Source: an uncultured Candidatus Saccharibacteria bacterium
Lineage (GTDB): Bacteria > Patescibacteriota > Minisyncoccia > Phycocordibacterales > SBAW01
Direction: 5' to 3'
Length of the DNA: 39,245 nt
Assembly: GCA_964349995.1 (NCBI GenBank)
Contig: CAYGIN010000001.1
Coordinates: 1-39,245, forward strand
Shown here piece by piece: positions 409 through 37,550 of the stretch. A program made the position numbers and the translations under genes. How positions within the stretch are numbered: the stretch's first letter is position 1; every line of letters begins with the position of its first letter. The notes beneath the pieces are model-generated. The model saw only the letters and a program-made list of their open reading frames with translations. It had not been told where the DNA came from and did no database searches.

Positions 409-489
409 TATAGCAACAGGGCAGGTCGCCATCCGGCGATCTGCCCTTTATTTGCATGATTAGATCGCCGATTCCAAAACATTTTGTCT
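409..489 (+). repeat. Functional copy of the same leader and 5'-CDS module, running into CDS 456..4373
   Basis: Same 81-nt alignment as 152..232. This copy continues into the long ORF. Confidence 0.85.
419..453 (+). terminator. Terminator-like leader hairpin ending 9 nt before ATG 456 (possible attenuator or 5' stabiliser)
   Basis: gggcaggtcgcc (419-430) pairs with ggcgatctgccc (435-446), with one G:U wobble and loop atcc, followed by tttattt (447-453). Confidence 0.5.
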
Positions 490-3400
490 CCTCGGTCGAG
501 GCGGCTTCTCAATTTAAAAAAACAAACGATTACATCAGCCTACTGTGCCGACGGGGTTCGGTGCACGGAGTACTCGCGGATACTCAATGGTATGTAGATC
601 CTGCTTCGTTGGTCTTGTACTTTACAAAACAGGAAGAACTTCGCACCCAGCGCCACCAACAGCTTTCGGCAAAGCTTGCCCAAGAGTACAGGCAGCGCGT
701 AGGTGAAGTTTCTAAGCAACCGCTGGTTGTATTGCCGCAAATAAAATTTTATGTGCATGTAGTTGGGTTTGTTACCGGTGCCGCGATGCTGCTTGGCACA
801 CTTGTATTTGCAAGCAGTATGCATGTGCCGGAGCAGAATCAATACGCTGCAATCTCTCAAACCCAATCACCCTTCTTCGGCACGGGGGCGCCATCAGTTG
901 TGTTGCCAACGAGCACAGGTGATGCGTTTGCAGGTGCAACCAATTTTTTCTCAGATGTGTTTGATACGTTCTTCGGCAACGAAACACAAGTTGCGCAGAA
1001 CGTTGTTACCGAACCTGTGCAGAACTCGCCGATTGGTTCTGGGGAACCGCGGACGAATTCTGCTCCGGCATCCGCGACAGTCAGTGTGCCGGGTGTAGCT
1101 GTTTCGTCTCCAGCTGTGATTAACACCTACCCTGTCATCGAGCGCATCGTTGAACGCAGCGTTGCAGTTGGCGGCGTGTCAGAGGAAGATCTCACAGGAC
1201 GTTTGCAGGATCTCTACAACCGCCTTGCAGTACAGATATCTAATCTCCAAAACCCAGGTCGTGAAAGTCCACTGCAAAACTTCGCTGTCTCACAAGTCAT
1301 CAACAACCTTTCAGATGTTCGGCTCAATGGCACCACAAGAGCAGATGGTATTACTGCGTCGTCCGTCACCGCAAGTAGCCTTGATGTCTCCGGCAATACA
1401 AACTTCAGCGGCTTCTTGAATACAGGCACAACAACGGTTAACAGCCTCGTAGTGACTAATCTCTCGACGAGTACGTTTGCGGGTAATCTTGCGGTCACCG
1501 GCGCGACAGCGCTTAGTTCAACACTCGACGTCGCAGGCAACACCACTCTTTCCAACGCTACATCCACCAACTTCTTTTCGTCCGTTGCCTCAAGCACTAA
1601 TTCCTACACACAAAATCTTCAGGCCGCGATTGTCTCATTGGTAAATGCCACCTCGACTAACTTCTTCGCAGGTACAGCTTCATCAACAAGCTTGTTTTCG
1701 CAAGCGGCATCGTTAGGCACGCTTTCTGCGCAGGCATTTACATTATCAGGAATTGGTACGTTTACAGGCGGCTTCCTCTCGCTCGCATCCACTACCATCG
1801 GTGCAGGCACACAAACAACAGGTTTGACGATAAACGGTGGAGCAACAACAACGGGGAATGCATACTTTGCGGGTGGGCTTGGAGTTGGGATTGCAACTTC
1901 TGCTGTAGGAGTGTTGCAAACATCCGGCAACGCCTACATTGGAGGCAACCTGTTTGTGGGCGGGAATTCGGTGACGCTGGGCAACAGCTCTTCAAATACA
2001 TTAGTAATTAACTCTTCGATACAGTCTCATTTGACTCCAGACCAAAACATCACCTACGACCTTGGCTCCTCGTCTTTCTACTGGCGCAATGTGTATGTGG
2101 GTAACATTGTGGCAAATAATATTTCAGCTGCTTCAACGACCATCGCAGGTACCGCATCCGCAACATTCACGCTCAACTCGGACAACGCGACTTCCGATAC
2201 GGAAGACATGGACCTTATCTTCTTCCGCGGCAACGTGGTGCCGAATGGGTTGCTTTCTTGGAAATCCGCCACAGACCGTTTCGAGTTCAATCAATCACTC
2301 TTTATTCAAAACGCTTCAACGGATAATCTCACCGGCGTAACACTCGACCTCAAAGGACTTTCCGGACAAACAGGAAATCTATTCCGCGTCGCATCTTCAA
2401 CAGGAACTGACTTCTTTAACATAACTTCCGCTGGCCTAGTCGGCATCGGCACCACAACCCCAAGCTCACTCTTCTCAGTCCAAGGCAACCAATACACCAG
2501 CGGGTCTGCATTCTTCGGCGGCGCAATTACTGCAACTTCAACACTCGGGATTACAGGCCTTGCAACGTTTACTAACGGCCTGCTTTCTCTCGCTTCCTCA
2601 ACTATCGGCGGCGGTACTCAAACAACCGGCCTCACTATTTTGGGTGGCGCAACAACGACAGGAAATGCGTATTTTGCAGGGAGTATAGGGGTGGGGACGA
2701 CAAGTCCTTCGCAAGCGTTCTCAGTAAACGGTACTATTTATTCAAACACCGGTTACCTCTTTCCAGATGGCACCACACAAACCTCCGCAGCAATCCTAAA
2801 CGGCGCGGGTACAACTGGGCAGATTCCGTACTATGCGAGCGCGGGTACGGCAATCACAGCTACTTCAACTTTGTTTATTTCAACTGCAAGCAATGTTGGC
2901 ATCGGCACGACATCGCCCTGGGGTCTCTTGTCTGTAAATGCAAACGGTATAGGCTCTACACCGCAGTTTGTTATTGGTTCCTCAACCAAGACGGACTTTA
3001 TTGTGACAAATGCGGGGTATGTGGGTATTGGTCTTCCAACAGCAGCAAACCCCCTGTCGATTAGCAAGACTGGAGTTGGCACCCTCGCTTCTTTTTATCG
3101 CTCGGATGCAAACTCAACCGACAACGCAGATATTCTCCTTGGTCGTTCATCTGCTTCCGGACAAAATATTAATTTCAGATATGTATACGATGCATCAAGT
3201 CCGTACCTAAATATCTTTCACGGAGGAGATTCTGCCGGAACAGGACTTGCAGTACTCAAGGGTGGCAACGTCGGTATAGGTACAACGACGCCCTGGGCGC
3301 AACTGTCTGTAAATCCAAACGGCCTCACTGGCCCTGCGTTTGTCATCGGTTCTTCAACTGCGACGAAGTTTATTGTCGACAATAGCGGCAACGTCGGCAT

Positions 3401-4373
3401 AGGCACCACTTCTCCGTTTCGCAAATTCTCTATAACTGATACTGTTTCGACCGCACAGGTGACGGTTGCGTACGACAACAGCCGCTACACCGACTTCCTT
3501 ACCAACTCGGTCGGCGATCTTGTTGTGACCCCGCAAGGTCAAGACATTTTCTCAAACGACAGCAACCTCTGGATCTGTTCTGGCGGTTCGTGTCCGTCTG
3601 GCACGCCGACTGGCACCGGCAATATTGTTGTTGAAAACAATATTGGCATCGGTACCACTACGCCGCAATTCCGCCTTACTATTGAATCTCAGAATGCCAC
3701 TGACAACCTCTTCCAAATCGCGACAAGCACAAATCAGAGCATCTTTGTGGTCAATGCCACAGGCAAAATCGGTGTCGGTACCTCAACGCCAACACAGCAG
3801 TTCTCCATCTCAGATCGCCTCTTTGTTGGCGCAGGAGGAGCATCGGGTATGGGTACTGCAACCTCGACGTTCCAAGGTGACATAAAAATTACCGGCAAAC
3901 TTGATGTCGGCACCATCGACCCTGTGTACACTATCGACGGCGTAAAATACGCAACCTACGGCCATTCGACTATTGGCATCAAGGAAGAAGCGGTTGCGGT
4001 GCTTGAGGTGGCCGACAAGAATCCGGCGACAGGCAAGTATGAAACAAAGATTGACTTCAAAGATTTGGACAAGAGTTCCGACCTTTGGCTCTTCTATCAA
4101 ATCACCGACTTTGGGGAAGACTGGAAAAACTTGGTCATTAACCTGACGGCGTCATTTGACGGTTCGGTCTTCTATACAAAGGTTCCAAACGAGGCAGCGG
4201 TCATTATCTCGTCGAGCGAGCCTGGGGAAGTATCTGCACGCTTTATCGCAAACCGCTTTGACGCAGACAAGTGGCCGAATCTCCGCCCCGACCAAGATGA
4301 CTCCTACACAGGACATGAGCTCCAAACGACGCAAGGTGGGCAGGCGACCAGGCGCTTTGATTTGGCAGAGTAG
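456..4373 (+). CDS. Giant (1305 aa) membrane-anchored, repeat-rich surface protein of the tail-fibre-like or S-layer-like type
   Basis: ATG 456 to TAG 4371-4373.
- The N-terminal ~55 aa look like a small HTH/excisionase-like module (SVEAASQFKKTNDYISLLCRRGSVHGVLADTQWYVDPASL).
- One TM helix follows (VVGFVTGAAMLLGTLVFA), then S/T/G/N-rich repeats.
- Two long internal repeats are present (LSLAS-TIG-GTQTTGLTI-GGATTTGNAYFAG, twice).
- Eight copies of the motif (V/I)G(I/V)GT(T/S)(T/S)P....(F/L)S(V/I) occur, one of them degenerate. Confidence 0.9.
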   Translation: MIRSPIPKHFVSSVEAASQFKKTNDYISLLCRRGSVHGVLADTQWYVDPASLVLYFTKQEELRTQRHQQLSAKLAQEYRQRVGEVSKQPLVVLPQIKFYVHVVGFVTGAAMLLGTLVFASSMHVPEQNQYAAISQTQSPFFGTGAPSVVLPTSTGDAFAGATNFFSDVFDTFFGNETQVAQNVVTEPVQNSPIGSGEPRTNSAPASATVSVPGVAVSSPAVINTYPVIERIVERSVAVGGVSEEDLTGRLQDLYNRLAVQISNLQNPGRESPLQNFAVSQVINNLSDVRLNGTTRADGITASSVTASSLDVSGNTNFSGFLNTGTTTVNSLVVTNLSTSTFAGNLAVTGATALSSTLDVAGNTTLSNATSTNFFSSVASSTNSYTQNLQAAIVSLVNATSTNFFAGTASSTSLFSQAASLGTLSAQAFTLSGIGTFTGGFLSLASTTIGAGTQTTGLTINGGATTTGNAYFAGGLGVGIATSAVGVLQTSGNAYIGGNLFVGGNSVTLGNSSSNTLVINSSIQSHLTPDQNITYDLGSSSFYWRNVYVGNIVANNISAASTTIAGTASATFTLNSDNATSDTEDMDLIFFRGNVVPNGLLSWKSATDRFEFNQSLFIQNASTDNLTGVTLDLKGLSGQTGNLFRVASSTGTDFFNITSAGLVGIGTTTPSSLFSVQGNQYTSGSAFFGGAITATSTLGITGLATFTNGLLSLASSTIGGGTQTTGLTILGGATTTGNAYFAGSIGVGTTSPSQAFSVNGTIYSNTGYLFPDGTTQTSAAILNGAGTTGQIPYYASAGTAITATSTLFISTASNVGIGTTSPWGLLSVNANGIGSTPQFVIGSSTKTDFIVTNAGYVGIGLPTAANPLSISKTGVGTLASFYRSDANSTDNADILLGRSSASGQNINFRYVYDASSPYLNIFHGGDSAGTGLAVLKGGNVGIGTTTPWAQLSVNPNGLTGPAFVIGSSTATKFIVDNSGNVGIGTTSPFRKFSITDTVSTAQVTVAYDNSRYTDFLTNSVGDLVVTPQGQDIFSNDSNLWICSGGSCPSGTPTGTGNIVVENNIGIGTTTPQFRLTIESQNATDNLFQIATSTNQSIFVVNATGKIGVGTSTPTQQFSISDRLFVGAGGASGMGTATSTFQGDIKITGKLDVGTIDPVYTIDGVKYATYGHSTIGIKEEAVAVLEVADKNPATGKYETKIDFKDLDKSSDLWLFYQITDFGEDWKNLVINLTASFDGSVFYTKVPNEAAVIISSSEPGEVSARFIANRFDADKWPNLRPDQDDSYTGHELQTTQGGQATRRFDLAE

Positions 4374-4378
4374 CTCAG

Positions 4379-4386
4379 AGTATACT
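4379..4386 (+). promoter_or_regulatory. AGTATACT -10 box 8 nt upstream of ATG 4395 (leaderless-type promoter of cassette A)
   Basis: The same octamer and spacing occur at 7229, 16393 and 19928. Confidence 0.5.
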
Positions 4387-4394
4387 AAAGAAGC

Positions 4395-4589
4395 ATGAAA
4401 CACTTGCCTAAACTGTTGGCCCCACTGTCCTTGGTAAGCATATTTGGCTTGTCCGGTATCGCATGGCTCCATACACCGTCTTTACATCAAACGATGTGTG
4501 CAGTTGCAGACAATACTGCTGGAGCGTCTGAACAGCAAAAACATACCGAAGATAGAATATATTTTGTAGGGTGTGGCGGACTTTTCTAA
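4395..4589 (+). CDS. Small exported precursor peptide A (64 aa) ending ...RIYFVGCGGLF
   Basis: It has a Lys-rich n-region (MKHLPK), a hydrophobic core (LLAPLSLVSIFGLSGIAWL), and a polar body with two Cys. A paralog at 16409..16600 keeps the same C-terminal motif using different synonymous codons. Confidence 0.7.
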   Translation: MKHLPKLLAPLSLVSIFGLSGIAWLHTPSLHQTMCAVADNTAGASEQQKHTEDRIYFVGCGGLF

Positions 4590-4602
4590 CAGCACGGCCT
4601 TT

Positions 4603-5052
4603 ATGACACATGAAGACCCAAAACAATGGCGCATTGTGCCGACTGTGTATGAGGAGGGAGAGTATGCCGCTCCAATCTCGCACGTTCAAAAAAGTGATTT
4701 TGTGTGGGATGCGCTCGGCCGCTCGCTTGATGCACACAAGCCCCAAGGATTGGGAATTATGCTTTCCTTCGCGTGGCAGCTGCACTTTTATGCATACAAA
4801 GAAGCAAGTGCTCGCGGGATAGTGACCGCGGTTGCAATGCCGACCAATGTCAGCGCGCTGTCGGGGCTTATGAAGTCGGTCCCCATTGAGGCGGTTCTGA
4901 CCACAGAGGAAGGGGCACACGCATTCGTACAAGATCTGCAAGAGGCGGGGATGCTCGAGAGAATAAAGGTGTGGTTTATTGTGTCTCCAAAAGAACGCCC
5001 CAGCTCGTTTGTGGCGCCCGTTGGTACTACCGTGCACGACCTACTTCCATGA
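4603..5052 (+). CDS. Cassette A partner protein (149 aa from ATG 4603; the ORF opens at GTG 4573), function unknown
   Basis: It is a paralog of 16625..17062. There is no signal peptide. The stop TGA 5050-5052 overlaps ATG 5049 of the ligase. By eye, the central part (GIMLSFAWQLHFYAYKEASARGIVTAVAMPTN...PIEAVLTTEEG) weakly resembles the N-terminal subdomain of long ANL enzymes. Confidence 0.75.
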   Translation: MTHEDPKQWRIVPTVYEEGEYAAPISHVQKSDFVWDALGRSLDAHKPQGLGIMLSFAWQLHFYAYKEASARGIVTAVAMPTNVSALSGLMKSVPIEAVLTTEEGAHAFVQDLQEAGMLERIKVWFIVSPKERPSSFVAPVGTTVHDLLP

Positions 5053-6332
5053 ATACTCAGCACACCTTACTGCAGAAAGCGCTCGATTTTGCGCTCGGGA
5101 GTCCGCACTCGGATTTTTATCGCCGTAAATTTGGCCCCTCGTATAAAGAGTATTTCGATAAGCCTATACAAGAAATACCTTTTCTCGTGCGCACAGAGAT
5201 AGACGCCGTTCCTGTATTTGAACGGACGTTTGTTCCGCGGGATATGGTGCGTTTTATACGCTCCACATCGGGTTCCACCGGAAAGAGTGTTATCGGTTTT
5301 CCAATGCTTGAGGAAGGACTGTATCAAAATTTTCTAGGCTTAATTGGATATCAAAAAGAGTCAGGGCAATTGTCGCGCTATTTTGAACCTTATTTTTCGC
5401 AGATGAATATTCGCTCAATGCTTTTGTTTTCTGCGGGTTCGTTTGTGCATGAAGTACGTGTACGAGAAATGGAAGGAAGACAATGTATTGCAGGAGAGTT
5501 TGCACAGCCAAAACTGACAGCAGAGCTTGCAAAGGAAGCGAACATCGAAGCCATTGTTGGTAATCCAAGCGGGCTCGTAGATTTTGCGCCGCACTTAAAA
5601 GCTATAGAAGGAGCAGATACTGTGCGGCTTATTATATCGGTGGGAGAACGTCCTACCTCGTTGCAGTTTGCCGCGCTACAAACTATTTTTCCCAATGCGA
5701 AAATTGCATTGCAGTATGGGCTGACTGAATCGCAAGGATACGTCGGGTACACCTGTCCAGAGAAATTGAGTATAGATCCCAAAGCACTTCATGTAGCCGA
5801 CGGCACATTGTTTATAGAACTTATTGATCCTGACACTGAAGTCGTGCTTCCGCTTTTACCAGGGACTGAGGGTGAACTCGTTGTTACCACGCACGAACCG
5901 CAAGGGTTTCCTCTTATCCGCTATAGAACTGGAGATTTTGTGCGGATCCGCGGGGAATCCTGCGCCTGTGAGGGGAGCCCTCTGTTATTTGAATGTATGG
6001 GGAGGCTTACGCTCGACAGATTGCGGGTACCACATGGGATGCTCACTATCGCTGCAATTGAACAGGCGGTGTCGAGTCTTCCCGGTGTGCAGGAGTTTGA
6101 GGCGAAATGGAATGCCGAGGGTCCGTTGCCGAGGTTGGAAATTTCTCTGTATATGGACAGTGTGAAAAACGGAGAGGGTATATCTATAGATGAACTTGCT
6201 TCACGTATCCGTATTGCACCGAAGGCATCCTATCAAACAATTGTAGAGGAAGGGCGAGTGTTGCCGCTTGAAGTGGTTACTAAACCCTTAGAGCAGTGGG
6301 TCGGATGGAAAAAGAAAAAACGGCTGCACTAA
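5049..6332 (+). CDS. PaaK/F390-synthetase-like adenylate-forming (ANL superfamily) ligase, cassette A (427 aa)
   Basis: ANL motifs are present: STSGSTGKS (P-loop/A3), YGLTESQG (A5), YRTGD (A8), CACEGSP...GRLTLDR, and a C-terminal Lys cluster KKKKR. The N-terminus is laid out as in phenylacetate-CoA ligases (DFYRRKFG...IPFLVRTEI). I chose ATG 5049 (ATGA overlap, conserved in cassette B) over the longer ORF starting at 4971. Confidence 0.85.
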   Translation: MNTQHTLLQKALDFALGSPHSDFYRRKFGPSYKEYFDKPIQEIPFLVRTEIDAVPVFERTFVPRDMVRFIRSTSGSTGKSVIGFPMLEEGLYQNFLGLIGYQKESGQLSRYFEPYFSQMNIRSMLLFSAGSFVHEVRVREMEGRQCIAGEFAQPKLTAELAKEANIEAIVGNPSGLVDFAPHLKAIEGADTVRLIISVGERPTSLQFAALQTIFPNAKIALQYGLTESQGYVGYTCPEKLSIDPKALHVADGTLFIELIDPDTEVVLPLLPGTEGELVVTTHEPQGFPLIRYRTGDFVRIRGESCACEGSPLLFECMGRLTLDRLRVPHGMLTIAAIEQAVSSLPGVQEFEAKWNAEGPLPRLEISLYMDSVKNGEGISIDELASRIRIAPKASYQTIVEEGRVLPLEVVTKPLEQWVGWKKKKRLH

Positions 6333-6785
6333 TTAGTTTGAGAGTGGAAGGAGATCTCCTGCGATTACAGTGCTTGCTTCAAGACGGCTGTGTTCCGCGG
6401 AGTTTGTAAATAGAATAAATATTGTCTCGCCTACAACAAAATCCCATTGTTCAATGGGGAGTATGGAAACACCGCCGATAACTCCGTCTGCACCAGTAGT
6501 TGCACGGACTCGTGTCATGGTCGCATTTGGGGTTATCCAAACTTTTGCGGTTGCTACTCGCCCTGTGCCGGTATCATACGAGAAGGTCATCCATCCTTCG
6601 ACACTATTATTTTCGACCAACGTTCCGGTCTTTCGAATATCTTTGACGATGCTCAGTGTATTTGTTCTTGCTTTTTGATAGTTCGGGTCTTCCGCACCGC
6701 TCGCTTGCATAATGTTAAGTGTGACACTGCCCGCAAGCAACGCAGCAAGAACAAAGAGGAGCGTCAAAGTATTTTTTTGGTTCAT
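6333..6785 (-). CDS. Exported hypothetical protein (150 aa)
   Basis: It has an N-terminal signal or anchor (TLTLLFVLAALLAGSVTL) and a beta-rich body. Its stop abuts the ligase stop with 0 nt between them (convergent). Confidence 0.7.
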   Translation of the reverse strand: MNQKNTLTLLFVLAALLAGSVTLNIMQASGAEDPNYQKARTNTLSIVKDIRKTGTLVENNSVEGWMTFSYDTGTGRVATAKVWITPNATMTRVRATTGADGVIGGVSILPIEQWDFVVGETIFILFTNSAEHSRLEASTVIAGDLLPLSN

Positions 6786-6791
6786 AGCTGG

Positions 6792-7220
6792 TTATTGGGT
6801 TGGGGATGTAAATATCATTATAGCGTAGGGGACTGTTTGTTCCGCGCTGAGCCACAGGATTACGCGTATCCGAAGACCTTCCGTAAGCGTTTTTGCCGGT
6901 ACTGTGTGCACGAGACGCGAATCGACAATAGTGCCTTGCTGGTCCGGCATCAACATCCGCACCAACATTGCAGTGTCTTTGTCGTAGTGGACGAGAATAG
7001 TTTGAGCGGGTTTGAGTGGGTCCTCGTCCTGCGTGAGCAAAAATGAGTCTGCAGAAAGGCTGCTGACAGTGCCACCGACAGGCATAGTTATATTTTTTCT
7101 GGCTCCAATTTGGAGTGCCTCAATATTCCTGCCCGATAAGGCCAATACTCCCATGGTCGATGCGAGTGCGACTCCTACACACACACCGCACACTACCGCC
7201 AGTGCCGAAGAGGCATTCAT
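6792..7220 (-). CDS. Membrane-anchored hypothetical protein (142 aa)
   Basis: The N-terminus is hydrophobic (ALAVVCGVCVGVALASTMGVLAL). The start codon lies 8 nt from the palindromic AGTATACT box. It is the first gene of a two-gene minus-strand operon. Confidence 0.7.
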   Translation of the reverse strand: MNASSALAVVCGVCVGVALASTMGVLALSGRNIEALQIGARKNITMPVGGTVSSLSADSFLLTQDEDPLKPAQTILVHYDKDTAMLVRMLMPDQQGTIVDSRLVHTVPAKTLTEGLRIRVILWLSAEQTVPYAIMIFTSPTQ

Positions 7221-7228
7221 ACTGTTCC

Positions 7229-7236
7229 AGTATACT
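7229..7236. promoter_or_regulatory. Palindromic AGTATACT box centred in the 23-bp gap between divergent starts 7220 (-) and 7244 (+)
   Basis: AGTATACT is its own reverse complement, so it reads TATACT on both strands. It lies 8 nt and 7 nt from the two ATGs. Confidence 0.55.
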
Positions 7237-7243
7237 AGTATGT

Positions 7244-8698
7244 ATGCGTACCGTTCGTACTTTCATGTCGGCTCTAGCCCTTTTGTTCGCATGTGTGGTG
7301 TACATGTTTTTACCGCTTGAAACTCAAGACGCTGGAGGCGCGCTTCTTTCGTGTACTGTAATAGGAATAGTATTGCTCGACGCATTTCTGCGGGGGTATG
7401 GGCCGAGTCCGCGTCACTGGCATATGTCACAGTGGCTTGTCGTAGCTTTCGTACTCTCTCTTTTTGTCTCGACACTGTTTTCAAAGAACTATACCCATGC
7501 ACTTTGGGGGTTTTCATTCGATATGACATCAGCGCTATTTCTTTCGTTTGTATTCTGTCTACCGCTTATTGTGGGGACACTCCCTGCCGCGACGCGGAGG
7601 ATATTGTTTATAAGTGCATGTCTGTCGCTCGTACTCCTTGTAGCCTTTCCGCTCATACGATCGGAAGTATATGTTCGACCCTCGCATGAAGCCACTCTAG
7701 GGATTGAGTCTGCATCGTACGCAGAAAATGGAACCCGGGCTCTACTTGTTGGACTCGGACCCAATTCGTTTGTGTATGCATGGCAGATGTATAAACCCGC
7801 GGCGGTGCTTACGACACCATTTTGGGCCGATGATTTTCCCGTTGGAAGTAGTGTCGTTACAACGCTCACTATTGAGACAGGAGTTATAAGCGTCCTCCTG
7901 CTTTTTTTGATATACCTGTCTGCCTGCGCAGAGGAGTTATGGAAAAGTATTGCGGAACAGGTACCACGTGGGAGGAAGTTTTTTTCCAGTCTGTCTGTTG
8001 CGCTTGTGCTTGGGTCTTTTGTTGCTCTTGTATACGCAGAGCCGTCCGCTCCGCTCGTGTTGGTGTCGGGCATACTTCTATCCTCATTCCGGTTTCAAAC
8101 GGAACCGCGGTTGCTCCTGAGTATGTGGGTTCGCCGGGCGGCTATTTTTTTAAGCGTAATTTTTATATGCGTTGTCGTATATATAGCAGTTGCAATTGCA
8201 TTTTATTTTTATGCATTTTCACAGGTGCGCGCGGGGAATGTGCCGTTGGCTCGCAGTACGGGCGAGTACTCATATCAACTCTACAAAAATCCCCAGACCG
8301 CGCGGTTTCTCTCGCAAGTATTCCGGTCACTCGGGCATGAGCTGGGCAGGATACACGCATCGAAAAACACCACACAAGACGCATTCCACACTGCGTCCGC
8401 ATATGCGCGGGCAGCTACACAGTACGAGTCGCAGAACGGACAGAGCTGGAAATTACTCGGCATCAGCCTTGCAGAAGAATTGTCTCTCCAAAAAAACCAA
8501 ATCTTTTCTACTGAAGGTAAAAAAGCTTTTGATACGGCGGTGAAGCGAATTCCTAATGACCCGTCGATTCTCTTTTTTGAAGCGCAACTCTACATACTTG
8601 CGGGGGATCAGGTGGGAGCAAAGAACTTGCTCGAAAAAGCTCTTTTGATGAAGCCTGACTATGTGGAGGCGAGTGACTTGCATGAGGCGATTCAGTAA
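7244..8698 (+). CDS. Polytopic membrane protein with a C-terminal TPR-like region (possibly O-antigen-ligase/polymerase-like)
   Basis: There are many hydrophobic helices and then helical repeats at the C-terminus (...NDPSILFFEAQLYILAGDQVGAKNLLEKALLMKPDYVEA). I chose ATG 7244 over GTG 7115, because the longer ORF would overlap the minus-strand gene. The family assignment is an eyeball guess. Confidence 0.75.
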   Translation: MRTVRTFMSALALLFACVVYMFLPLETQDAGGALLSCTVIGIVLLDAFLRGYGPSPRHWHMSQWLVVAFVLSLFVSTLFSKNYTHALWGFSFDMTSALFLSFVFCLPLIVGTLPAATRRILFISACLSLVLLVAFPLIRSEVYVRPSHEATLGIESASYAENGTRALLVGLGPNSFVYAWQMYKPAAVLTTPFWADDFPVGSSVVTTLTIETGVISVLLLFLIYLSACAEELWKSIAEQVPRGRKFFSSLSVALVLGSFVALVYAEPSAPLVLVSGILLSSFRFQTEPRLLLSMWVRRAAIFLSVIFICVVVYIAVAIAFYFYAFSQVRAGNVPLARSTGEYSYQLYKNPQTARFLSQVFRSLGHELGRIHASKNTTQDAFHTASAYARAATQYESQNGQSWKLLGISLAEELSLQKNQIFSTEGKKAFDTAVKRIPNDPSILFFEAQLYILAGDQVGAKNLLEKALLMKPDYVEASDLHEAIQ

Positions 8699-11629: not shown

Positions 11630-11684
11630 AGGTCGTCCCCGAACTGTTTTGTAGTCCTGCCTAGATGAGGTATCCTTTTAGGGT

Positions 11685-13573: not shown

Positions 13574-14806
13574 ATGATTAATTTTAAAACACGCCAAATA
13601 TTTTTTATTGTGCTGGGCGTGTTTGTTTTTGGAGGCGTTGCGGTTGCACTGCGCGTACATTCTGTGCAAAAAACACCCGAGGAATATGCCCGCGCTATTG
13701 TCGCCCACTGCGCCGAGGCATCGAATCACACCTCTTGTTATGAACAGGAGGTGCCTAAACTGTTGGTTCAGGGAGTGCGGTTTGAGGATGCGTTTGAGGT
13801 TGCCTATATTATTCAGCAACTTGATCAAACTGGCGAATACTGTCACCGCATAGGACACGAGCTTGGATCCAAGGAAACAGCAAAAGACACAAGCAAATGG
13901 AAAGAAGTTGCGCGCCGAACTCCTTTAGGGAAGTGTCTTGCGGGCGGACTGCACGGTGCCTTCCAGGAGCGTTTTAAACAGGCATCTCTTTCTCCTGCGG
14001 AGCTTCCTTCTTTTGAAAAAGAAATGCAAGGTTTTTGTGATGTTCAGAAAAATATCCCATCGTCCTCCATTGACCTTTCCATGTGTGCACACGGTCTTGG
14101 GCATTTATTTTTGTTTGCAACGGGAGGAGATATCCAAGAGTCAGTGCGCCTGTGTTCGGCAATTGTTTTTAAAGAAGAGGTGGGTGTAACCAGAGAAGGC
14201 CAAGAGTTGTCGTGTTTTGACGGAATGTTTATGCAACTTTTCGAACCGCACGACGCGGAAGAATACGCTCTTATCCAGGGACATGAACAGACTACAGACA
14301 CTGTCGGTGCTTTCTGTACAACTTTTTTACCGTTGCCAAAAGCCGCCTGTGTTGCACGCAGTGCACCCTTGTTTTATAAAAATCTTACTACGGGGGCACC
14401 ACGCCCGCTCGACTGTGGAACACTGACAGGCCAGCGTCAGCAGGACGCTTGTTTTTCGACACAGCTTCGGCTCTTTGCGCGCGACACATTTTTTAATCTT
14501 GATGCCACAGATGACTACTGTGCAACATACCCAGAAAATAAACGCGGGTGGTGCTATGCTTCCGCCGGTTCATTCGCGTTTATGGCAGGGTACGATTATG
14601 AACAACCGTTTCGATTTTGTGCACGAGCAGAAACACTCGGCGTTGGGGATCAGTGCTACGAAACACTGGCGCAGTTCATCCCATTTGTTTTCAGTACTGA
14701 CGAAAAAACTCGTGCCAGTTTCTGCAAACGCCTACCCGCGCCGTATATGGCCAACTGTATATACGCACAGGCCACTAATCCTACTCCTGCGCCCTCCGCA
14801 CAGTAA
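13574..14806 (+). CDS. N-terminally anchored Cys/His-rich repeat protein, family member 1 (410 aa)
   Basis: It has a TM helix followed by repeated C-x(7-15)-C pairs. Motifs include YCHRIGHELG, CLAGGLHG, MCAHGLGH and SCFDGMFMQLF. Paralogs are at 19943, 21201 and 22284. Confidence 0.85.
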   Translation: MINFKTRQIFFIVLGVFVFGGVAVALRVHSVQKTPEEYARAIVAHCAEASNHTSCYEQEVPKLLVQGVRFEDAFEVAYIIQQLDQTGEYCHRIGHELGSKETAKDTSKWKEVARRTPLGKCLAGGLHGAFQERFKQASLSPAELPSFEKEMQGFCDVQKNIPSSSIDLSMCAHGLGHLFLFATGGDIQESVRLCSAIVFKEEVGVTREGQELSCFDGMFMQLFEPHDAEEYALIQGHEQTTDTVGAFCTTFLPLPKAACVARSAPLFYKNLTTGAPRPLDCGTLTGQRQQDACFSTQLRLFARDTFFNLDATDDYCATYPENKRGWCYASAGSFAFMAGYDYEQPFRFCARAETLGVGDQCYETLAQFIPFVFSTDEKTRASFCKRLPAPYMANCIYAQATNPTPAPSAQ

Positions 14807-16385
14807 GAGTGTCTATTAGAGGTTGCATTACTTTATTGTGCGCCTGGATATGCATCGACAAAAGCTCGTCGAGAGAGTACATGTTTTGCAAATCGCGTCG
14901 ATAGGAGAGTAGCGTAAACCCTGTTGGAGGAACTTCATGCTTGGCCACCCCATAAAATAGAGTCGTGTCTCTTCCGAAGGGCCCTGTTTCGTTTGCAAGC
15001 AGTAAAAGTGGTGAAATACCACTGCGAATCATGGCAAATACGTTGGTCCGATAGGAATCAAATACTGCGGTTGTGTACGTACTTGCCTGGAGATCGTCAA
15101 AATACCCAATCATCAGTTCAAATCCAGCGCTACGCGTTTTTGCCTGAAGAGAAAGATCGCGTAGCCTGTGCACCTCTTTTTTTGAACCAAGAAAAAAGAT
15201 GAGGTCTGCGTCAGTTGTGTTTGCAAGGAGCGTGTCGATTTGTGCAATAAGGGCGTCGTAGGTTCCTTGAGAAAGAACCTCATGGGTTAAGAAGATATTT
15301 TGGGCAACGAGTACATTGTGGACGAGGGGAGCGTATGCGCTACTTACCTGTGCAATGGGATTTTTTTGCAGGAGTGCATGCGCATTGTATATGGAAAGCA
15401 GGTCACCAAATTCGCGCCCGGAATCCTGGCAGATGTATACATTGAAAGGTTGATATGAATAGGGAATGCCCGTTGCATATAGCGCCTTACTGAAAGATAC
15501 GGATATTTTGGAGAGATCGTAAAAAAAAGTGTCGCTTAGCAAGGTGACATATACTGCTGTTGTCGATGAAAAGGCCGAAGTGTGAAGACTTACGTCGTAA
15601 TACGTTGGCGAGTACGATGCATAGCAGGAAGATGAGGAGAGCCCCACGGTTGCTGTGTCGCGAAGTCCTTTATTAGATTTCTCGGCGTAGCGGCGGAGTG
15701 CTGACTGAGCGTCCGCGATGGGTTGCGGTGCACGGGCTTGCAATGGAGACGCTATATTTTTTTGTGCAGGCGCACGCACGGAGGTCCATAGAACTTTTTC
15801 TGCACAGCTGGCATCTCTGCCTTCCGCGCACATAAATCGCCGCATCTCTTCTTCACGCATGACCGCAAGTTGCTCTTGCCCCTTTCTCAGGATTTCTGCA
15901 ACATAGGTCGAACTTGTAAATCCTTTGAATGATTGTAAGTTCAAAGGCATTCCAACAGACAAAAGAGCAATTGCATTTGCAAGGTCGTGGTCGTATGCAT
16001 CAAACAAAGACAAGAGAGCGTTGTGGTAGATTTTTGCATTTGAGGCCGATGCATCTGAGAGTACGTTGCGGCGAGCCTCTTCCGTGTTTGGGATGTGTGA
16101 AAGAAAATCCATCGGGTATGCACGTGTGTGGAGGACGCGACTTGGGTCATCTGAAAAAGGGAGCACGGAGATGGCGGTGGTTTTTTTGAATGCCTCAACC
16201 GCCTGTCTTGCCTCACTCACTGACATGCCAGGCATCGCGAGCATCGGGCTCAGTTCATGTATTCGGGCATAGGCGTCCCACCCGCCAATCTGCACTATAG
16301 ACGACGTGTTTTTTTGATATATACCAAGCCCCACAAAAACCAAAAATACCATAAGCAGTATGATGAATTTCTTTACGTGGCGCAT
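14781..16385 (-). CDS. N-terminally anchored hypothetical protein (534 aa), paralog of 18345..19919
   Basis: It has a single N-terminal TM helix. It is alignable by eye with the 524-aa paralog, for example FMCAEGRDASCAEK vs FACFEGDARSCESL, and IGYFDDLQASTY vs LGYFDDLQIGSY. Its 3' end overlaps the convergent gene by 26 nt. Confidence 0.85.
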   Translation of the reverse strand: MRHVKKFIILLMVFLVFVGLGIYQKNTSSIVQIGGWDAYARIHELSPMLAMPGMSVSEARQAVEAFKKTTAISVLPFSDDPSRVLHTRAYPMDFLSHIPNTEEARRNVLSDASASNAKIYHNALLSLFDAYDHDLANAIALLSVGMPLNLQSFKGFTSSTYVAEILRKGQEQLAVMREEEMRRFMCAEGRDASCAEKVLWTSVRAPAQKNIASPLQARAPQPIADAQSALRRYAEKSNKGLRDTATVGLSSSSCYASYSPTYYDVSLHTSAFSSTTAVYVTLLSDTFFYDLSKISVSFSKALYATGIPYSYQPFNVYICQDSGREFGDLLSIYNAHALLQKNPIAQVSSAYAPLVHNVLVAQNIFLTHEVLSQGTYDALIAQIDTLLANTTDADLIFFLGSKKEVHRLRDLSLQAKTRSAGFELMIGYFDDLQASTYTTAVFDSYRTNVFAMIRSGISPLLLLANETGPFGRDTTLFYGVAKHEVPPTGFTLLSYRRDLQNMYSLDELLSMHIQAHNKVMQPLIDTLTVRRAQE

Positions 16386-16392
16386 AGAAACA

Positions 16393-16400
16393 AGTATACT
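16393..16400. promoter_or_regulatory. Palindromic AGTATACT box centred in the 23-bp gap between divergent starts 16385 (-) and 16409 (+)
   Basis: It lies 7 nt and 8 nt from the two ATGs. TTTACG at 16372-16377 could serve as a -35 for the plus direction with a 17-nt spacer. Confidence 0.55.
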
Positions 16401-16408
16401 CTAGGTAC

Positions 16409-16600
16409 ATGACAAAGAAGTTTTTCCTCATGGTGGCGGTGATACTTTCTTTTTTTGGGGTAGGACTTTTTCCTTCGAAAGCCACTGACACTTTCTGCGC
16501 TCTTCCGACTAACGCTGAAGGTCTCTACTCTAAACAAACACAGGGTCAAACAAGCAATTCAGCCCGCGTCTATCAAGTCTGGTGTGGTGGTATTTTTTGA
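16409..16600 (+). CDS. Small exported precursor peptide B (63 aa) ending ...RVYQVWCGGIF
   Basis: MTKK followed by the hydrophobic core FFLMVAVILSFFGVGLF, then a polar body with two Cys. Its position and C-terminal motif match peptide A. Confidence 0.7.
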   Translation: MTKKFFLMVAVILSFFGVGLFPSKATDTFCALPTNAEGLYSKQTQGQTSNSARVYQVWCGGIF

Positions 16601-16624
16601 ATCTGATTAGTGTACACACGAGCA

Positions 16625-17062
16625 ATGCATGATGGCCACATAGTAACGCGGGTGGTTCCTGAGGATTGGACTGATGCGTCCTCGCGCATACTTTTTATGC
16701 CAAATGACGCTTCTTGGAACACGCTTGGACGTATGCTTGATGAGACACATCCTAAATGTATTGGGATTCTGCTTCCCCTCGTATCTCAATTGCATAGATA
16801 TGTGTATAGGGAAGCAAGAGCGCGTGGCATCACCGTTGCACTTGTTCCACCCTCAAACGCGATGGTACTCACAGGTCTTATGGAAGAGGTTCCTATTGAA
16901 GCAGTTGTCGCAGACGAACATGGCGCTCGTCTATTTGCTGAAGATCTTCAACACATGGGGCTTCTCTCGCGTGTCCGCGGTTGGCTCATTATTTCTCCTA
17001 AAGGAAAGGAGTCATCCTACGCACCTCAGTTTGGGGTTGTGTTTCGAGACTCATTTCTATGA
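16625..17062 (+). CDS. Cassette B partner protein (145 aa from ATG 16625; the ORF opens at GTG 16610)
   Basis: It is a paralog of 4603..5052, for example WNTLGRMLDETHPK vs WDALGRSLDAHKPQ, and VPIEAVVADEHGARLFAEDLQHMGLL vs VPIEAVLTTEEGAHAFVQDLQEAGML. TGA 17060-17062 overlaps ATG 17059. Confidence 0.75.
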   Translation: MHDGHIVTRVVPEDWTDASSRILFMPNDASWNTLGRMLDETHPKCIGILLPLVSQLHRYVYREARARGITVALVPPSNAMVLTGLMEEVPIEAVVADEHGARLFAEDLQHMGLLSRVRGWLIISPKGKESSYAPQFGVVFRDSFL

Positions 17063-18342
17063 CACCACTTTCTCGAGCTCTATCATTTGCGATTGAAAAT
17101 CCATATTCCGATTTTTATCGGAAGAAATATGGTGCTAAGTATCATGCATATATGCGGGGAAATTTTTCTAGCATCCCGCCACTTGTCCGCGACGATATTG
17201 ACGCGGTGCCACTGTATGAGCGCATTTTTGTTCCAAAGGAGATGGTGCACCTTGTTCGCTCAACATCAGGTTCCTCTGGGCGCCGCGTCACTGGATTCCC
17301 AATGGTCGAAGAACCTGACCTTGTGCAATTCCGCATATCAATTGGTTTTACAAAGGAGGAAGCAGAATCGGCGCGCTACTTCAGTTCTTATTTTAAAATG
17401 AATGAAGTATTCAGTCTCCTTTTATTTTCATTAGTAGGCGTTGTGCACGAGGTGGATCTCAGTGACGTCAACGGAGGTCGCGTCACTATGGTTGACATAA
17501 AATATCCAGAACTCACTGCGCGCCTTGCAAAAGAGGCACAGGCTGACGCGATTTTTATTTTTCCATCACCGCTGTTGCTGCTTGCGCCAGAGCTTACTCG
17601 GGCCGGTGTTGCGGGGCAGATTAAACTCATACTCCTTGTAGGGGAGCGCATGATTGAATCGCAGAGACTCGCTATCGTGGAAGCATTCCCAGATGCACGT
17701 ATTGAGAATATATATGCATCAACAGAATCCCAGGGCATTGCCGCACAGACCTGTCCGCTGTTTCATACAAAAAAACCGAACCTTATACATCCAAATAACA
17801 CCTATCTATTTGAGCTCCTGCCTTCGAGTGGAGACGAGAGCCTTCCGCTTTCTGTAGGGCAGGAAGGTGAGGTAGTCCTTACCACATTGCTTCCCGTGGT
17901 TTTTCCACTGATTCGTTTTAGAACCGGGGACTATGCTGTAGTTCGTCAAAACGGGCTGTGCGCGTGCGGTAGCCCTGCGCCCCTCGTTGAGATTCTTGGG
18001 CGTGTTGAACTTGATCGTATAAAAATCCCATTTGGAGGCATTAGCGTCGCTGCGCTTGAAGAAGCGGTGCGCTCCCTCCCTCTTCCCGTTAGGGATTTTA
18101 GCGCTGTATGGATTGAGAACGAAACTATTCCACGTCTTGCTATCTCTGTGTATACAGACGAAATAATTCCAAGCTCATTTGCAGATATTGTCGCGAAAGC
18201 GTTAAAGATAAATTCTGAGGAAAGCTACTTTGCTATTTGGGGAAAAGGTGCGGTTGGGGAGTTAACGCTTGCCCGGGAGGAAGTTTCGTCACTGGAGTTT
18301 CTTCGCTCGGGTAAACGGAAACGATTACATATTCAACGATAG
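17059..18342 (+). CDS. PaaK/F390-synthetase-like adenylate-forming ligase, cassette B (427 aa)
   Basis: Motifs: STSGSSGRR, ASTESQG, FRTGD, CACGSP...GRVELDR, and C-terminal GKRKR. It has the same length as the cassette A ligase. Confidence 0.85.
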   Translation: MTPLSRALSFAIENPYSDFYRKKYGAKYHAYMRGNFSSIPPLVRDDIDAVPLYERIFVPKEMVHLVRSTSGSSGRRVTGFPMVEEPDLVQFRISIGFTKEEAESARYFSSYFKMNEVFSLLLFSLVGVVHEVDLSDVNGGRVTMVDIKYPELTARLAKEAQADAIFIFPSPLLLLAPELTRAGVAGQIKLILLVGERMIESQRLAIVEAFPDARIENIYASTESQGIAAQTCPLFHTKKPNLIHPNNTYLFELLPSSGDESLPLSVGQEGEVVLTTLLPVVFPLIRFRTGDYAVVRQNGLCACGSPAPLVEILGRVELDRIKIPFGGISVAALEEAVRSLPLPVRDFSAVWIENETIPRLAISVYTDEIIPSSFADIVAKALKINSEESYFAIWGKGAVGELTLAREEVSSLEFLRSGKRKRLHIQR

Positions 18343-18344: not shown

Positions 18345-19919
18345 TTATTGAAGTATTGTGCGTCGCGCTTTCAATTCAGTAATAAGGTCAGAAAAAGCTT
18401 TATGACGTGCGACGATATCCGCAGCAAATAGCTGGCGCTCATTTAAAAATCCTGCTTGGTGTACGAGAGTCGTTGAGAGCGGTCGGATGGGAATTTCTGA
18501 ATCCTTAAACGGGTCAATACTGTATATGCGTTTACTCAGCAGGGAGTGTCCACTTGGAAACACCGTCTCATTATCAAGCGCATATAACTGCGACAGTCCA
18601 CCGCGCGTAATAAGAAAAACACTCGGAGGGGAGGGGTTTAACCTGTATGGAATGTAGCTTCCTATTTGCAAGTCATCAAAATACCCAAGTACTAAATCAA
18701 GGCTTGAACTTTTTGCCCGAGCTTCAGTTACCCGCTCTGCAAGTTTTATCACCTCCTCTCTCCCAAGGCTTTGTATGAGGGAGGTAGGGTCTGTTTTCCG
18801 TATTGTAAATATGGCAGCGTTAAGATATGCGTTGTACTCATGTTCTTGAAGCAACAACGGTCGCATAGAGAATTTCTCGGAAGCAGTTTGAAGATCACGG
18901 AGGGTTCTTGTGGAGAAACCTGTCGGCGTACTCGGCGCGCTGAGTAGCGTCTTGGACAGATTTGCCATGCCGAGAATCCTCCCCACATCCATACCGAAAT
19001 CTGGGCACATATATGCATTAAATGGCTGGAATGTAAGAGTTACGCCTGACGCATGCAAAAGCTTGTAGAATGGGTGAGTGCTTGATGCGGTGTTTTCAAC
19101 ATAGAGCCGGTTGAGATACACGACGTGTGCCCCAGGCACTTCAGAGAGCCGCGATGGTTGCACTGTAAGCGCAAAATATGCTGGCGTATCATTAAAACAC
19201 GAAGAATTTTCGATTACGAATATAGGAGAGGTTTCAATTGAAGGGTATATGACAGAAAGTGGATATGTATTCTTTTGAACAACTTCCGTTTCGTATGTTC
19301 TGTTGCTGGTTTGATATAGTTCGCCGAAATTAAATTGTAGCTGTAGTAGTGATTCGCATGAACGTGCGTCTCCCTCAAAACAGGCAAACCTCCGGTCCTC
19401 TTTCTTCAATGCAGTAGCGTTGGCGCGCAGTGCTTCTGTAAGTATTGTTTGAACAGAGTCTCCGGTATTTTGGCCACTGAAGTATTGATACACGTTTGGA
19501 TTTTTATCCAAAGAAAGTACTGCGTCAGCCCCATGAAGGTCGTGTTCATGTGCCAGAAGGAGCGCATATAGTTTTTCATGGTACGTTCTTGCATGAGCAG
19601 GAGAAGGGTCTGCAATAAGTACTCGACGCGCTTCTTCAGCTTCGGGAAGCGTCCTTAAAAAACGGAAAGGGTAGATAGCTTCTTTTGCCTCCTTGTTTTC
19701 AGGGAACATGGGTACGGCTGCTTTTGCAGATAGTTCGAAAGCATCCAGAGCTTTTCGAAACGCACGCATATCGGTCCCAGGGAACGCGTATAGTGGGTCA
19801 AGTAATTGACGGTTGGCGTATTCCACAGCAGCTCTCTGAGGGTCAGACATAGTATGTTGCAATAGAACCGCAACAATACCCATTGCACACAACAGAATTA
19901 CAACTTTTAGTGTCCGCAT
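18345..19919 (-). CDS. N-terminally anchored hypothetical protein (524 aa), paralog of 14781..16385
   Basis: It has a single N-terminal TM helix. Its stop lies 2 nt from the ligase B stop (convergent), and its start lies 8 nt from the palindromic box at 19928. Confidence 0.85.
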   Translation of the reverse strand: MRTLKVVILLCAMGIVAVLLQHTMSDPQRAAVEYANRQLLDPLYAFPGTDMRAFRKALDAFELSAKAAVPMFPENKEAKEAIYPFRFLRTLPEAEEARRVLIADPSPAHARTYHEKLYALLLAHEHDLHGADAVLSLDKNPNVYQYFSGQNTGDSVQTILTEALRANATALKKEDRRFACFEGDARSCESLLQLQFNFGELYQTSNRTYETEVVQKNTYPLSVIYPSIETSPIFVIENSSCFNDTPAYFALTVQPSRLSEVPGAHVVYLNRLYVENTASSTHPFYKLLHASGVTLTFQPFNAYMCPDFGMDVGRILGMANLSKTLLSAPSTPTGFSTRTLRDLQTASEKFSMRPLLLQEHEYNAYLNAAIFTIRKTDPTSLIQSLGREEVIKLAERVTEARAKSSSLDLVLGYFDDLQIGSYIPYRLNPSPPSVFLITRGGLSQLYALDNETVFPSGHSLLSKRIYSIDPFKDSEIPIRPLSTTLVHQAGFLNERQLFAADIVARHKAFSDLITELKARRTILQ

Positions 19920-19927: not shown

Positions 19928-19935
19928 AGTATACT
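19928..19935. promoter_or_regulatory. Palindromic AGTATACT box centred in the 23-bp gap between divergent starts 19919 (-) and 19943 (+)
   Basis: It lies 8 nt and 7 nt from the two ATGs. Confidence 0.55.
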
Positions 19936-21190: not shown

Positions 21191-21200
21191 ATATATACGT

Positions 21201-25021: not shown

Positions 25022-25029
25022 GAATCAGT

Positions 25030-37536: not shown

Positions 37537-37550
37537 TGTGATGTATCGCG

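Follow-up and report, generated by a model that had tools for sequence, protein, structure and literature searches.

Two copies of a peptide-ligase cassette

The stretch of DNA analysed here (the window) comprises 39,245 nucleotides (nt) of an uncultured Candidatus Saccharibacteria bacterium (contig CAYGIN010000001.1 of assembly GCA_964349995.1, positions 1 to 39,245, forward strand). It carries two copies of a gene cassette in which a small peptide with a conserved, Cys-containing C-terminal tail is encoded beside an adenylate-forming ligase of the ANL superfamily. Cassette A occupies positions 4395-6332 and cassette B positions 16409-18342, each with three open reading frames (ORFs), as follows (aa, amino acids; Φ, hydrophobic residue):

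4395..4589, + strand: ORF1-A, 64-aa peptide with the tail RIYFVGCGGLF followed by the stop codon, a class I tail (C-G-G-Φ-Φ)
4603..5052, + strand: ORF2-A, 149 aa, homologous, within the ligase N-terminal domain, to residues ~139-225
5049..6332, + strand: ORF3-A, 427-aa PaaK-fold ANL adenylate-forming ligase
16409..16600, + strand: ORF1-B, 63-aa paralogous peptide with the end RVYQVWCGGIF
16610..17062, + strand: ORF2-B, dead ligase-fragment paralogue, 47% identical to ORF2-A
17059..18342, + strand: ORF3-B, 427-aa ligase, 42% identical to ORF3-A

ORF1-A and ORF2-A are separated by 13 nt, and the TGA of ORF2-A overlaps the ATG of ORF3-A (ATGA at 5049-5052). The same ATGA overlap is found between ORF2-B and ORF3-B, and ORF2 and ORF3 are translationally coupled through it. 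For ORF2-B, the ATG at 16625 is more likely to be the start codon than the GTG at 16610. The coordinates, spacing, ATGA overlap and motifs that a first-pass annotation of this DNA had given for cassette A all hold on re-reading. Its observation that the entire unit recurs at 16409-18342 is also borne out, the two copies sharing 30% identity in the peptide, 47% in ORF2 and 42% in the ligase. The same annotation described a unit of three genes; all three are indeed present twice, but the unit is larger, as an extracytoplasmic protein of ~520 aa belongs to it too. The best explanation for cassettes A and B is that they are two diverged copies of one conserved peptide-modification module, distributed mainly in Patescibacteria. 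All functional statements made below are drawn from gene context and homology.

Conservation of the peptide beside the ligase

Locus contexts were fetched for members of the ligase family spread over the family tree, and further loci came from a genome scan (four Patescibacteria loci) and a metagenome scan (one locus). A small signal-bearing ORF with two Cys residues and the ending C-x-x-Φ-Φ lies beside the ligase in all 18 fetched loci that include ligase flanks. All 14 family loci put through a formal screen (189 kb) had a peptide match, 15 in total and never more or fewer than one per ligase, while 76 control loci of ordinary PaaKs from other phyla (831 kb) gave one seemingly spurious match. 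The controls came from the genome-collection scan, which returned mostly ordinary PaaKs because its pattern, PLIRYRTGD, is generic; these loci were reused as negative controls. Loci L003 and L092-L094 lay outside the formal screen, and all four carry the peptide.

The linkage is kept down to 25-30% ligase identity, with the peptide gene upstream, downstream or divergent relative to the ligase, and no genes but those of ligase and peptide are shared by all 18 loci. The small ORF is thus conserved next to homologous ligases whatever the gene order, and this conservation, together with the separation of the ligase from bona fide PaaKs described below, strongly supports the functional linkage of peptide and ligase that was proposed in the first-pass annotation.

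A minimal class I module of four genes is found at positions 5296-8838 of locus L088, consisting of an 80-aa peptide (...YKFSGCGGVI), a 171-aa ORF2, the ligase and a convergent 531-aa protein. It is carried on a 3.74-Mb contig beside ShlB/POTRA and TPS-domain genes; as these read as outer-membrane two-partner secretion, this copy is probably from outside Patescibacteria, which suggests that the module moved horizontally as one unit.

The Cys-tail peptide

ORF1-A (MKHLPKLLAPLSLVSIFGLSGIAWLHTPSLHQTMCAVADNTAGASEQQKHTEDRIYFVGCGGLF) begins with MKHLPK, followed by a 19-aa hydrophobic stretch, Cys35, a polar linker and the terminal RIYFVGCGGLF, which contains Cys60 and runs to the stop. The peptide of cassette B has the sequence MTKKFF...ARVYQVWCGGIF. 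The design shared by the peptides is a basic N-terminus, a hydrophobic segment of 16-20 residues, a polar linker with one Cys and a conserved tail, in which the order is aromatic, hydrophobic, any residue, small, C, G/N/S, G/S, Φ, Φ, stop. Tails of this kind are YFVGCGGLF, YYIGCGGLY, YFVGCGGFF, LYVSCGGFF, YFTSCGGFI, KFSGCGGVI, FFAGCGGLL, LFIGCNGFF, HFAGCNSIL, HFTGCNSIL, RFSGCNSII and HFVGCSSILD. The stop codon directly follows the second Φ in 15 of the 17 distinct locus peptides, and the remaining two add a single residue, Q or D. One relative from the peptide search that is close to the locus peptides (P0127) carries an extra terminal E, so that the extended tails are CGGFIQ or CGGFIE, and CSSILD. 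The distance from the Cys to the C-terminus is fixed although peptide identity is below 20%.

Judging by its codons, ORF1 is under purifying selection: the tail codons show synonymous differences among four relatives, and the ratio of nonsynonymous to synonymous substitution rates (dN/dS), taken from the single pair in which dS is not saturated, comes to 0.28. A profile search with the peptide found only 12 proteins, all close to known locus peptides; genes of this kind are rarely called. A lipoprotein reading of the first Cys was rejected, as no lipobox was seen by eye and the Cys lies 10-25 residues past the hydrophobic core.

The ligase is a PaaK-fold ANL enzyme apart from known PaaKs

ORF3-A carries the motifs STSGSTGKS, YGLTESQG, YRTGD and WKKKKRLH. 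In all 19 aligned family ligases, motifs A3 (the P-loop), A5, A7 and A8 and the Lys of A10 are intact, with STSGSTGKS, YGLTESQG, YRTGD, GRLTLDR and the K422 cluster conserved. With all five ANL motifs intact, adenylation should work. An AlphaFold 2 model of ORF3 built with 42 homologues has a predicted local distance difference test score (pLDDT) of 89.6 and a predicted template modelling score (pTM) of 0.86. Its best Foldseek match is PaaK1 (E 5e-26, template modelling (TM) score 0.74), followed by BT_0428, ClxA, AjiA1 and NatL2; of 542 PDB matches at E≤1e-3, the top 50 are all ANL enzymes. By this model, ORF3 is a member of the ANL superfamily with the two-domain PaaK fold, and motifs, model and Foldseek matches together bear out its first-pass classification as an ANL adenylation enzyme of compact PaaK layout. 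AjiA1 and NatL2 hand their adenylate to a nucleophile other than coenzyme A (CoA).

The relationship to any characterised ligase is, by sequence, distant. A search of PDB sequences with ORF3 retrieves PaaKs at E 1e-12 to 1e-9. The Pfam AMP-binding model gives 29.3 bits, slightly below its cut-off, and the best NCBIfam matches (the DVU_1553 family, PaaK and FlxY) are all far under theirs. For the cassette A ligase, the scores are 43.8 bits against a cut-off of 646.3 for TIGR02155 and 52.8 against 700 for NF041878, and the cassette B ligase scores lower still. The curated PaaK-family models overall give 44-91 bits against cut-offs of 300-800, and other family members behave alike; the FlxY model is among the PaaK-type matches of the peptide-linked ligases in general. 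Membership of bona fide PaaK, F390 synthetase, DltA or FlxY families was rejected for ORF3, since scores are far under all cut-offs. In distance trees built by simple neighbour-joining without bootstrap, the peptide-linked ligases form a clade apart from the named PaaKs. The window ligases thus do not group with bona fide PaaKs, either by tree position or by score. ORF3 has about 14 close homologues, after which there is a gap to E 1e-33.

With the PaaK-fold ligases PaaK, BT_0428, ClxA, NatL2, AjiA1 and FlxY, ORF3 shares the two-domain ANL fold that lacks the N-terminal subdomain of large ANLs, the adenylation motifs and the PaaK-type N-terminal helix bundle. However, identity to these enzymes is 18-20%, the peptide-linked ligases have a one-residue insertion in motif A8, and they are always paired with the Cys-tail peptide and, in class I, also with a dead fragment of the ligase itself, with no paa operon. 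No paa catabolic gene neighbourhood is present at the window ligases, the neighbours being the peptide, ORF2, membrane-anchored proteins without a family, sulfatases and a giant surface protein. Searches with Pfam and NCBIfam found no recognition element (RRE) of the kind known from peptides that are made by the ribosome and modified after translation (RiPPs), or other extra domain, in the window proteins.

ORF2 is a dead fragment of the ligase

ORF2 has no Pfam or NCBIfam match, and in the first-pass annotation it was listed as a 149-aa partner. Profile-profile alignment with hhalign instead places it on ligase columns 140-308 (98% probability, E 2.3e-13), with the short ORF2 of the window corresponding to ligase residues ~139-225. 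Its relatives in more distant loci are longer (229-306 aa) and end in a degenerate form of the 'PLIRYRTGD...C.CG' region of the ligase. ORF2 is without the P-loop and without A5, A7, A8 and A10, the catalytic Thr-Glu of A5 being replaced by Leu-Leu-Pro. The profile match and the missing catalytic motifs show ORF2 to be a piece of the ligase's own N-terminal domain that is catalytically dead, so that neither a separate partner family nor a novel protein is at hand. Nor do ORF2 and ORF3 make up a split full-length ANL enzyme, as ORF3 has a complete PaaK-type N-terminus and ORF2 duplicates an internal segment. In gene tables, ORF2 overlaps the start of the ligase by 4 nt in eight class I loci and by 50 nt, as called, in L094. 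ORF2 and the ligase probably form a heterodimer. ORF2 could also be a candidate recognition element for the peptide, in a role like that of an RRE.

A different gene content is seen in L010 (Nomurabacteria), where positions 2825-7158 encode one peptide (...LLFVSCGGFIQ) and two ligase-like genes, of 463 aa and a shorter 368 aa. L010 has three ORF2-like genes, two within 2825-7158 and a third at 11163-11870, from which it appears that the dead-fragment partner has been duplicated repeatedly.

Class I modules and the 520-aa family

Class I modules, which include both window cassettes, are those with the tail C-G-G-Φ-Φ, and ORF2 is always present in them. Wherever the flank suffices, they also encode the ~520-aa protein (the window, with two copies, and L005, L007, L088, L090, L091 and L094), which is the fourth component of class I modules, membrane-anchored and extracytoplasmic. 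The window members, and the Cys-rich paralogues found nearby, are:

14781..16385, - strand: 534-aa member of the 520-aa family, divergent from cassette B, with an N-terminal membrane helix and four invariant Cys
18345..19919, - strand: 524-aa second protein of the 520-aa family, convergent with ligase B; L088, L091 and L094 share this layout
13574..14806, + strand: Cys-rich ~400-aa membrane-anchored paralogue flanking cassette B
19943-21190, 21150-22274 and 22284-23507, + strand: three Cys-rich paralogues of 415, 374 and 407 aa, association with the module uncertain

The 520-aa family has 455 representative clusters at E≤1e-3, and its few named members come from Patescibacteria or unclassified metagenome-assembled genomes (MAGs). 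An N-terminal membrane helix and four invariant Cys are shared across the family, which has no match in Pfam, NCBIfam or PDB sequences. The AlphaFold model is confident (pLDDT 91.6, pTM 0.90), yet no PDB structure matches it significantly (best E 0.43, TM about 0.1), making the family a candidate new fold. A metagenome scan with the 520-aa family yielded one locus, syntenic with the window. In L005, the module lies in a seven-gene island flanked by the FBP-aldolase and L25 genes. In the window the same pair of genes adjoin each other, and this gives the limits of the island. The L005 peptide gene runs straight into the 520-family gene. In one class I locus, a KAS III gene stands between the peptide and ORF2/ligase genes.

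The four Cys-rich window paralogues contain repeated C-x-H-G-x-G-H-like motifs and match no family. As Cys-rich ~400-aa proteins are near the module only in L002, L010, L090 and L091, it is uncertain whether they are part of it. Among the small genes of 100-175 aa that flank different modules, no mutual homology was detected. Two other kinds of system were considered and rejected: a mobile element, as the 520-aa family is without relatives on plasmids or phages, and an anti-phage defence system, as PADLOC gave no match for ORF1, ORF2, ORF3, the 534-aa protein or other neighbours.

Class II modules

A sister class, with the tail C-(N/S)-S-I-(L/I), is represented by loci L008, L009, L089, L092 and L093, one of which is a Saccharibacteria MAG. 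Class II modules are without ORF2. In all five, a gene resembling Lnt (LNT_N plus CN_hydrolase domains) adjoins the ligase, and in all five an aromatic-metabolism gene is nearby: an aromatic ammonia-lyase (E 6e-161) in L009 and L089, a caffeoyl-CoA-OMT-like methyltransferase in L008 and L093, UbiA in L093 and prephenate dehydrogenase in L092. Methyltransferases of the ICMT/PEMT family are encoded in L008 and L089. These gene sets hint at an aryl or lipid modification of the peptide Cys, resembling that of CaaX proteins or of photoactive yellow protein (PYP).

Promoter-like sites and neighbouring genes

Both cassettes are preceded by promoter-like sites:

4357..4386, + strand: promoter-like site of cassette A, TTGATT, 18 nt, TATACT, with the -10 inside the palindrome AGTATACT and the end 8 nt before the ORF1 ATG
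16372..16400, + strand: promoter-like site of cassette B, with AGTATACT at 16393-16400, 7-8 nt from the ORF1-B ATG and from the divergent 534-aa gene

The palindrome AGTATACT has four copies in the window (4379-4386, 7229-7236, 16393-16400 and 19928-19935) against 0.17 expected, three of which lie between divergent genes, 7-8 nt from either start codon. The arrangement TATACT-N8-ATG is found five times in the window against 0.2 expected, and also stands upstream of the GAPDH gene (25016-25032). The copies between divergent genes look, from their spacing, like bidirectional -10 boxes for leaderless mRNAs. Because the element also occurs at GAPDH and at divergent gene pairs, we regard it as a general leaderless -10 element of this genome and not as specific to the cassettes. 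Of the earlier description of cassette A as a leaderless operon, the box 8 nt before the ATG stands and a leaderless ORF1-A mRNA is plausible, but the promoter style is genome-wide and not peculiar to the cassette.

Upstream of cassette A, at a gap of 21 nt, lies a gene for a 1305-aa repeat-rich surface protein (456-4373, + strand) with repeats of the 'GIGTTTP' type. Giant homologues of this protein also precede the peptide gene in L001, L002/L003 and L004, and its last ~360 residues are the best conserved (76% identical to L002). A functional link of the surface protein to the peptide is possible.

Three tandem paralogues of 197, 191 and 254 aa are encoded at 11685-12278, 12250-12825 and 12806-13570 (+ strand), and have a near-identical core of ~50 aa (GSGTFVIDHPLDPANKLLFHSFVESPDVK...), which suggests recent gene conversion. 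L002 carries the trio as well; in L001, at least one copy lies where the fetched locus ends. An ORF on the - strand (36865-37563) was read by eye as encoding a membrane helix at the N-terminus and, in a thioredoxin-like context, a CTQC motif. Its product may be an extracytoplasmic disulfide oxidoreductase, with a bearing on a possible disulfide between the two Cys of the peptide.

Proposed chemistry and alternatives

The arrangement of the genes suggests that the peptide is the direct substrate or acceptor of the ligase. Since ANL enzymes normally pass their acyl group to a thiol, and the peptides offer an invariant thiol at a fixed distance from a free C-terminus, the ligase would most likely put a thioester on the tail Cys before export. 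The form of this that we tentatively put forward, while rating it as short of probable, is S-acylation of the tail Cys by a small aromatic or fatty acid. The 64-aa chain would be complete before its signal sequence engages the export machinery. Export would then be post-translational, with the C-terminal tail the last part to leave, so that a cytoplasmic enzyme could act on it. In this interval the ligase, probably as a heterodimer with ORF2, would adenylate a small aromatic or fatty acid and move the acyl group to the thiol of the tail Cys, giving a product like the p-coumaroyl-Cys thioester of PYP. Recognition would follow a CaaX-like logic, in which the Cys is read at a fixed distance from the free C-terminus. 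The peptide would subsequently be exported, or stay anchored in the membrane, with its thioester. Outside the cell, its processing or use would fall to the 520-aa protein in class I and to the Lnt-like acyltransferase in class II.

A small acid is favoured by parsimony, as the characterised PaaK-fold enzymes use small, mostly aromatic acids and aromatic genes accompany the class II modules. The presence of aromatic-acid enzymes at the class II loci also somewhat favours the peptide as acceptor of a small acid over activation of its own C-terminus, and the KAS III gene within one class I module counts on the same side. Several observations weigh against S-acylation by such an acid. The class I modules, including the minimal one of L088, encode no acid-supplying enzyme, and the association with aromatic enzymes is that of five loci of the sister class, not of the window's own class. 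The two invariant Cys could form a disulfide, leaving no free thiol outside the cell, and a Cys four residues from the end would have to reach the adenylate as a loop. The peptide N-terminus may be a cleaved signal or a permanent anchor, an ambiguity that we also count here. To our knowledge, no ANL enzyme acylates a peptide Cys directly: LuxE acylates its own Cys, and PYP is loaded from a CoA thioester.

The fixed tail can also be explained by activation of the peptide itself. The ligase would adenylate the peptide's own C-terminal carboxylate, and attack by Cys(-4) would close a five-residue thiolactone, cyclo(C-G-G-L-F), in the layout of the staphylococcal autoinducing peptides (AIPs), with ATP in place of the AgrB protease; the thioester would serve as a signal pharmacophore or, for ligation beyond the cell, as a reactive warhead or an energy store. 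Ring size and the last two hydrophobic residues match the AIPs (the tail of AIP-II is CSSLF, while class II tails are CSSIL and CNSIL), the stop codon falls right after the second Φ in 15 of 17 distinct peptides, and the Gly-Gly after the Cys would favour tight ring closure. Thioesters are natural products of ANL enzymes, the minimal module of L088 would need no external acid, and ATP-driven activation of a peptide carboxylate with formation of a thiolactone is proven for ThiF-like enzymes such as GrcB (PMC12250964). We nevertheless consider such self-cyclisation rather doubtful, given that the characterised PaaK-fold enzymes all activate small acids, that tails longer by one residue exist (CGGFIQ or CGGFIE, CSSILD), that no module has a gene for an AgrC-like sensor kinase or other receptor beside it, and that both the aromatic-acid enzymes beside class II ligases and the second invariant Cys are left without a role. 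Its most specific version is unlikely: in Patescibacteria, a PaaK-fold ANL enzyme with a dead fragment of itself as helper would close the last five residues of the peptide into an AgrB-independent, ATP-driven, AIP-like thiolactone that is exported as a cell-cell signal or as stored energy. If true, energy stored in the thioester would allow covalent, ATP-free ligation of the peptide to an acceptor on the envelope or host cell, carried out by the 520-aa protein or, in class II, by the Lnt-like enzyme.

Ligase and peptide might instead belong to one pathway without being enzyme and substrate. The ligase would make an acyl-CoA or other small molecule for envelope or lipid chemistry, and the peptide would be an exported or anchored partner of the 520-aa protein or Lnt-like enzyme, serving for instance as cofactor or regulator, or as a relay that receives its acyl group outside the cell in the manner of DltX, a small protein that spans the membrane once and has a conserved acyl-accepting motif at its C-terminus. 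This would suit the class-specific partners, which are membrane or extracytoplasmic proteins, the L005 peptide gene that runs straight into a 520-family gene, and the class II neighbours, which resemble a small-molecule aromatic pathway. We find it improbable all the same, as no MBOAT or carrier protein that could move an activated acyl group across the membrane was found among the scanned neighbours, ligase and peptide are the sole genes shared by 18 of 18 loci, and no enzyme other than the ligase can be recognised in the four-gene L088 module. It is very unlikely that the peptide is a Sec-exported, disulfide-bonded bacteriocin-like or adhesin-like product with a merely structural tail, the ligase acting elsewhere, in immunity or a separate modification. 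Two invariant Cys and a signal-like N-terminus are what such a peptide would have, extracellular disulfides could come from the membrane-anchored, thioredoxin-like CTQC protein of 36865-37563, and two diverged peptide/ligase pairs in one genome resemble specificity pairs; yet this would explain neither the universal linkage to a carboxylate-activating enzyme nor a fixed distance between Cys and C-terminus at less than 20% peptide identity, and PADLOC gave no match.

Comparison with known systems

The peptides resemble AgrD, the substrate of AgrB, in being short precursors with a five-residue C-terminal Cys-x-x-Φ-Φ unit and an N-terminal membrane-targeting segment, which in the Agr precursor is removed by signal peptidase. 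In contrast to AgrD, they stop 0-1 residue past the putative ring and have no C-terminal recognition tail to be cleaved; the thiolactone is hypothetical here, and its energy would come from ATP through an ANL enzyme and not from cleavage of a peptide bond. No AgrB, AgrC or AgrA homologue was found with Pfam and NCBIfam among the scanned neighbours, in the window or in related loci.

ATP-dependent activation of a carboxylate on a ribosomal peptide, as proposed here, is known from the ThiF/E1-like RiPP enzymes GrcB, EnfB, IndF and MccB. These adenylate a carboxylate that then undergoes intramolecular attack (PMC12250964; PMC12150305), with a thiolactone as the product for GrcB and an imide for EnfB, and EnfB and MccB activating peptide C-termini too (PMC12250964). 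ORF3 differs from them in having the ANL/PaaK fold and not the E1 Rossmann fold; no RRE was detected, and the peptides have a signal-type N-terminus in place of a leader. The closest RiPP clusters, which likewise have a conserved short precursor gene beside an enzyme, are those whose enzymes recognise a conserved C-terminal motif on substrates with signal peptides (PMC12636315).

An aromatic ammonia-lyase and an ATP-dependent aryl-acid ligase, encoded next to the polypeptide, are combined in the synthesis of the PYP chromophore, a Cys69 thioester made with TAL and pCL (PMC12826048), and of flexirubin, which is initiated by TAL (FlxA) and the ligase FlxY (PMC3992019). A like grouping of lyase, ligase and Cys-peptide is seen in class II. 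Here, however, the acceptor would be an exported peptide of ~65 aa and not a PAS domain, class I has no lyase, and transfer in PYP is via a CoA thioester. What likens the module to CaaX processing, with its prenylated Cys, aaX proteolysis and methylation by ICMT, is a Cys placed a constant few residues before the free C-terminus, with small residues and after them hydrophobic ones behind it. In addition, two class II loci encode ICMT-family methyltransferases, and another one encodes a UbiA prenyltransferase. Unlike in CaaX proteins, four residues and not three follow the Cys, the lipid would be attached by acylation, and class I has no ICMT-like gene; no protein prenyltransferase or Rce1/Ste24 homologue was seen near the modules. 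Compared with Dlt systems, the module is without an MBOAT or carrier protein.

The first-pass view that this enzyme class is not a standard RiPP maturase agrees with the literature searched, in which no ANL- or PaaK-type RiPP maturase was found. A full-text search gave nothing on PaaK together with a thiolactone or a RiPP precursor, and only one unrelated review on Patescibacteria together with autoinducing peptides. Ribosomal lipopeptide systems use acyltransferases of the GNAT type and not ANL enzymes. No described system matches the peptide and ligase module, whose novelty would lie in the ATP-dependent modification of a peptide by an enzyme class not known in this role.

Patescibacteria have ultra-small cells, are mostly uncultured and live as episymbionts, and very few systems for signalling or surface modification can be recognised in them. 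A module that is conserved, duplicated and apparently highly expressed, and that couples an ATP-dependent ligase and an exported Cys-tail peptide to a large extracytoplasmic family (455 clusters), would offer a handle on how they talk or attach to hosts and neighbours. If either of the favoured mechanisms is true, be it direct S-acylation of the Cys or formation of a C-terminal thiolactone, the ANL/PaaK superfamily would join the modifiers of ribosomal peptides, and a short, portable C-terminal recognition tag would be gained.

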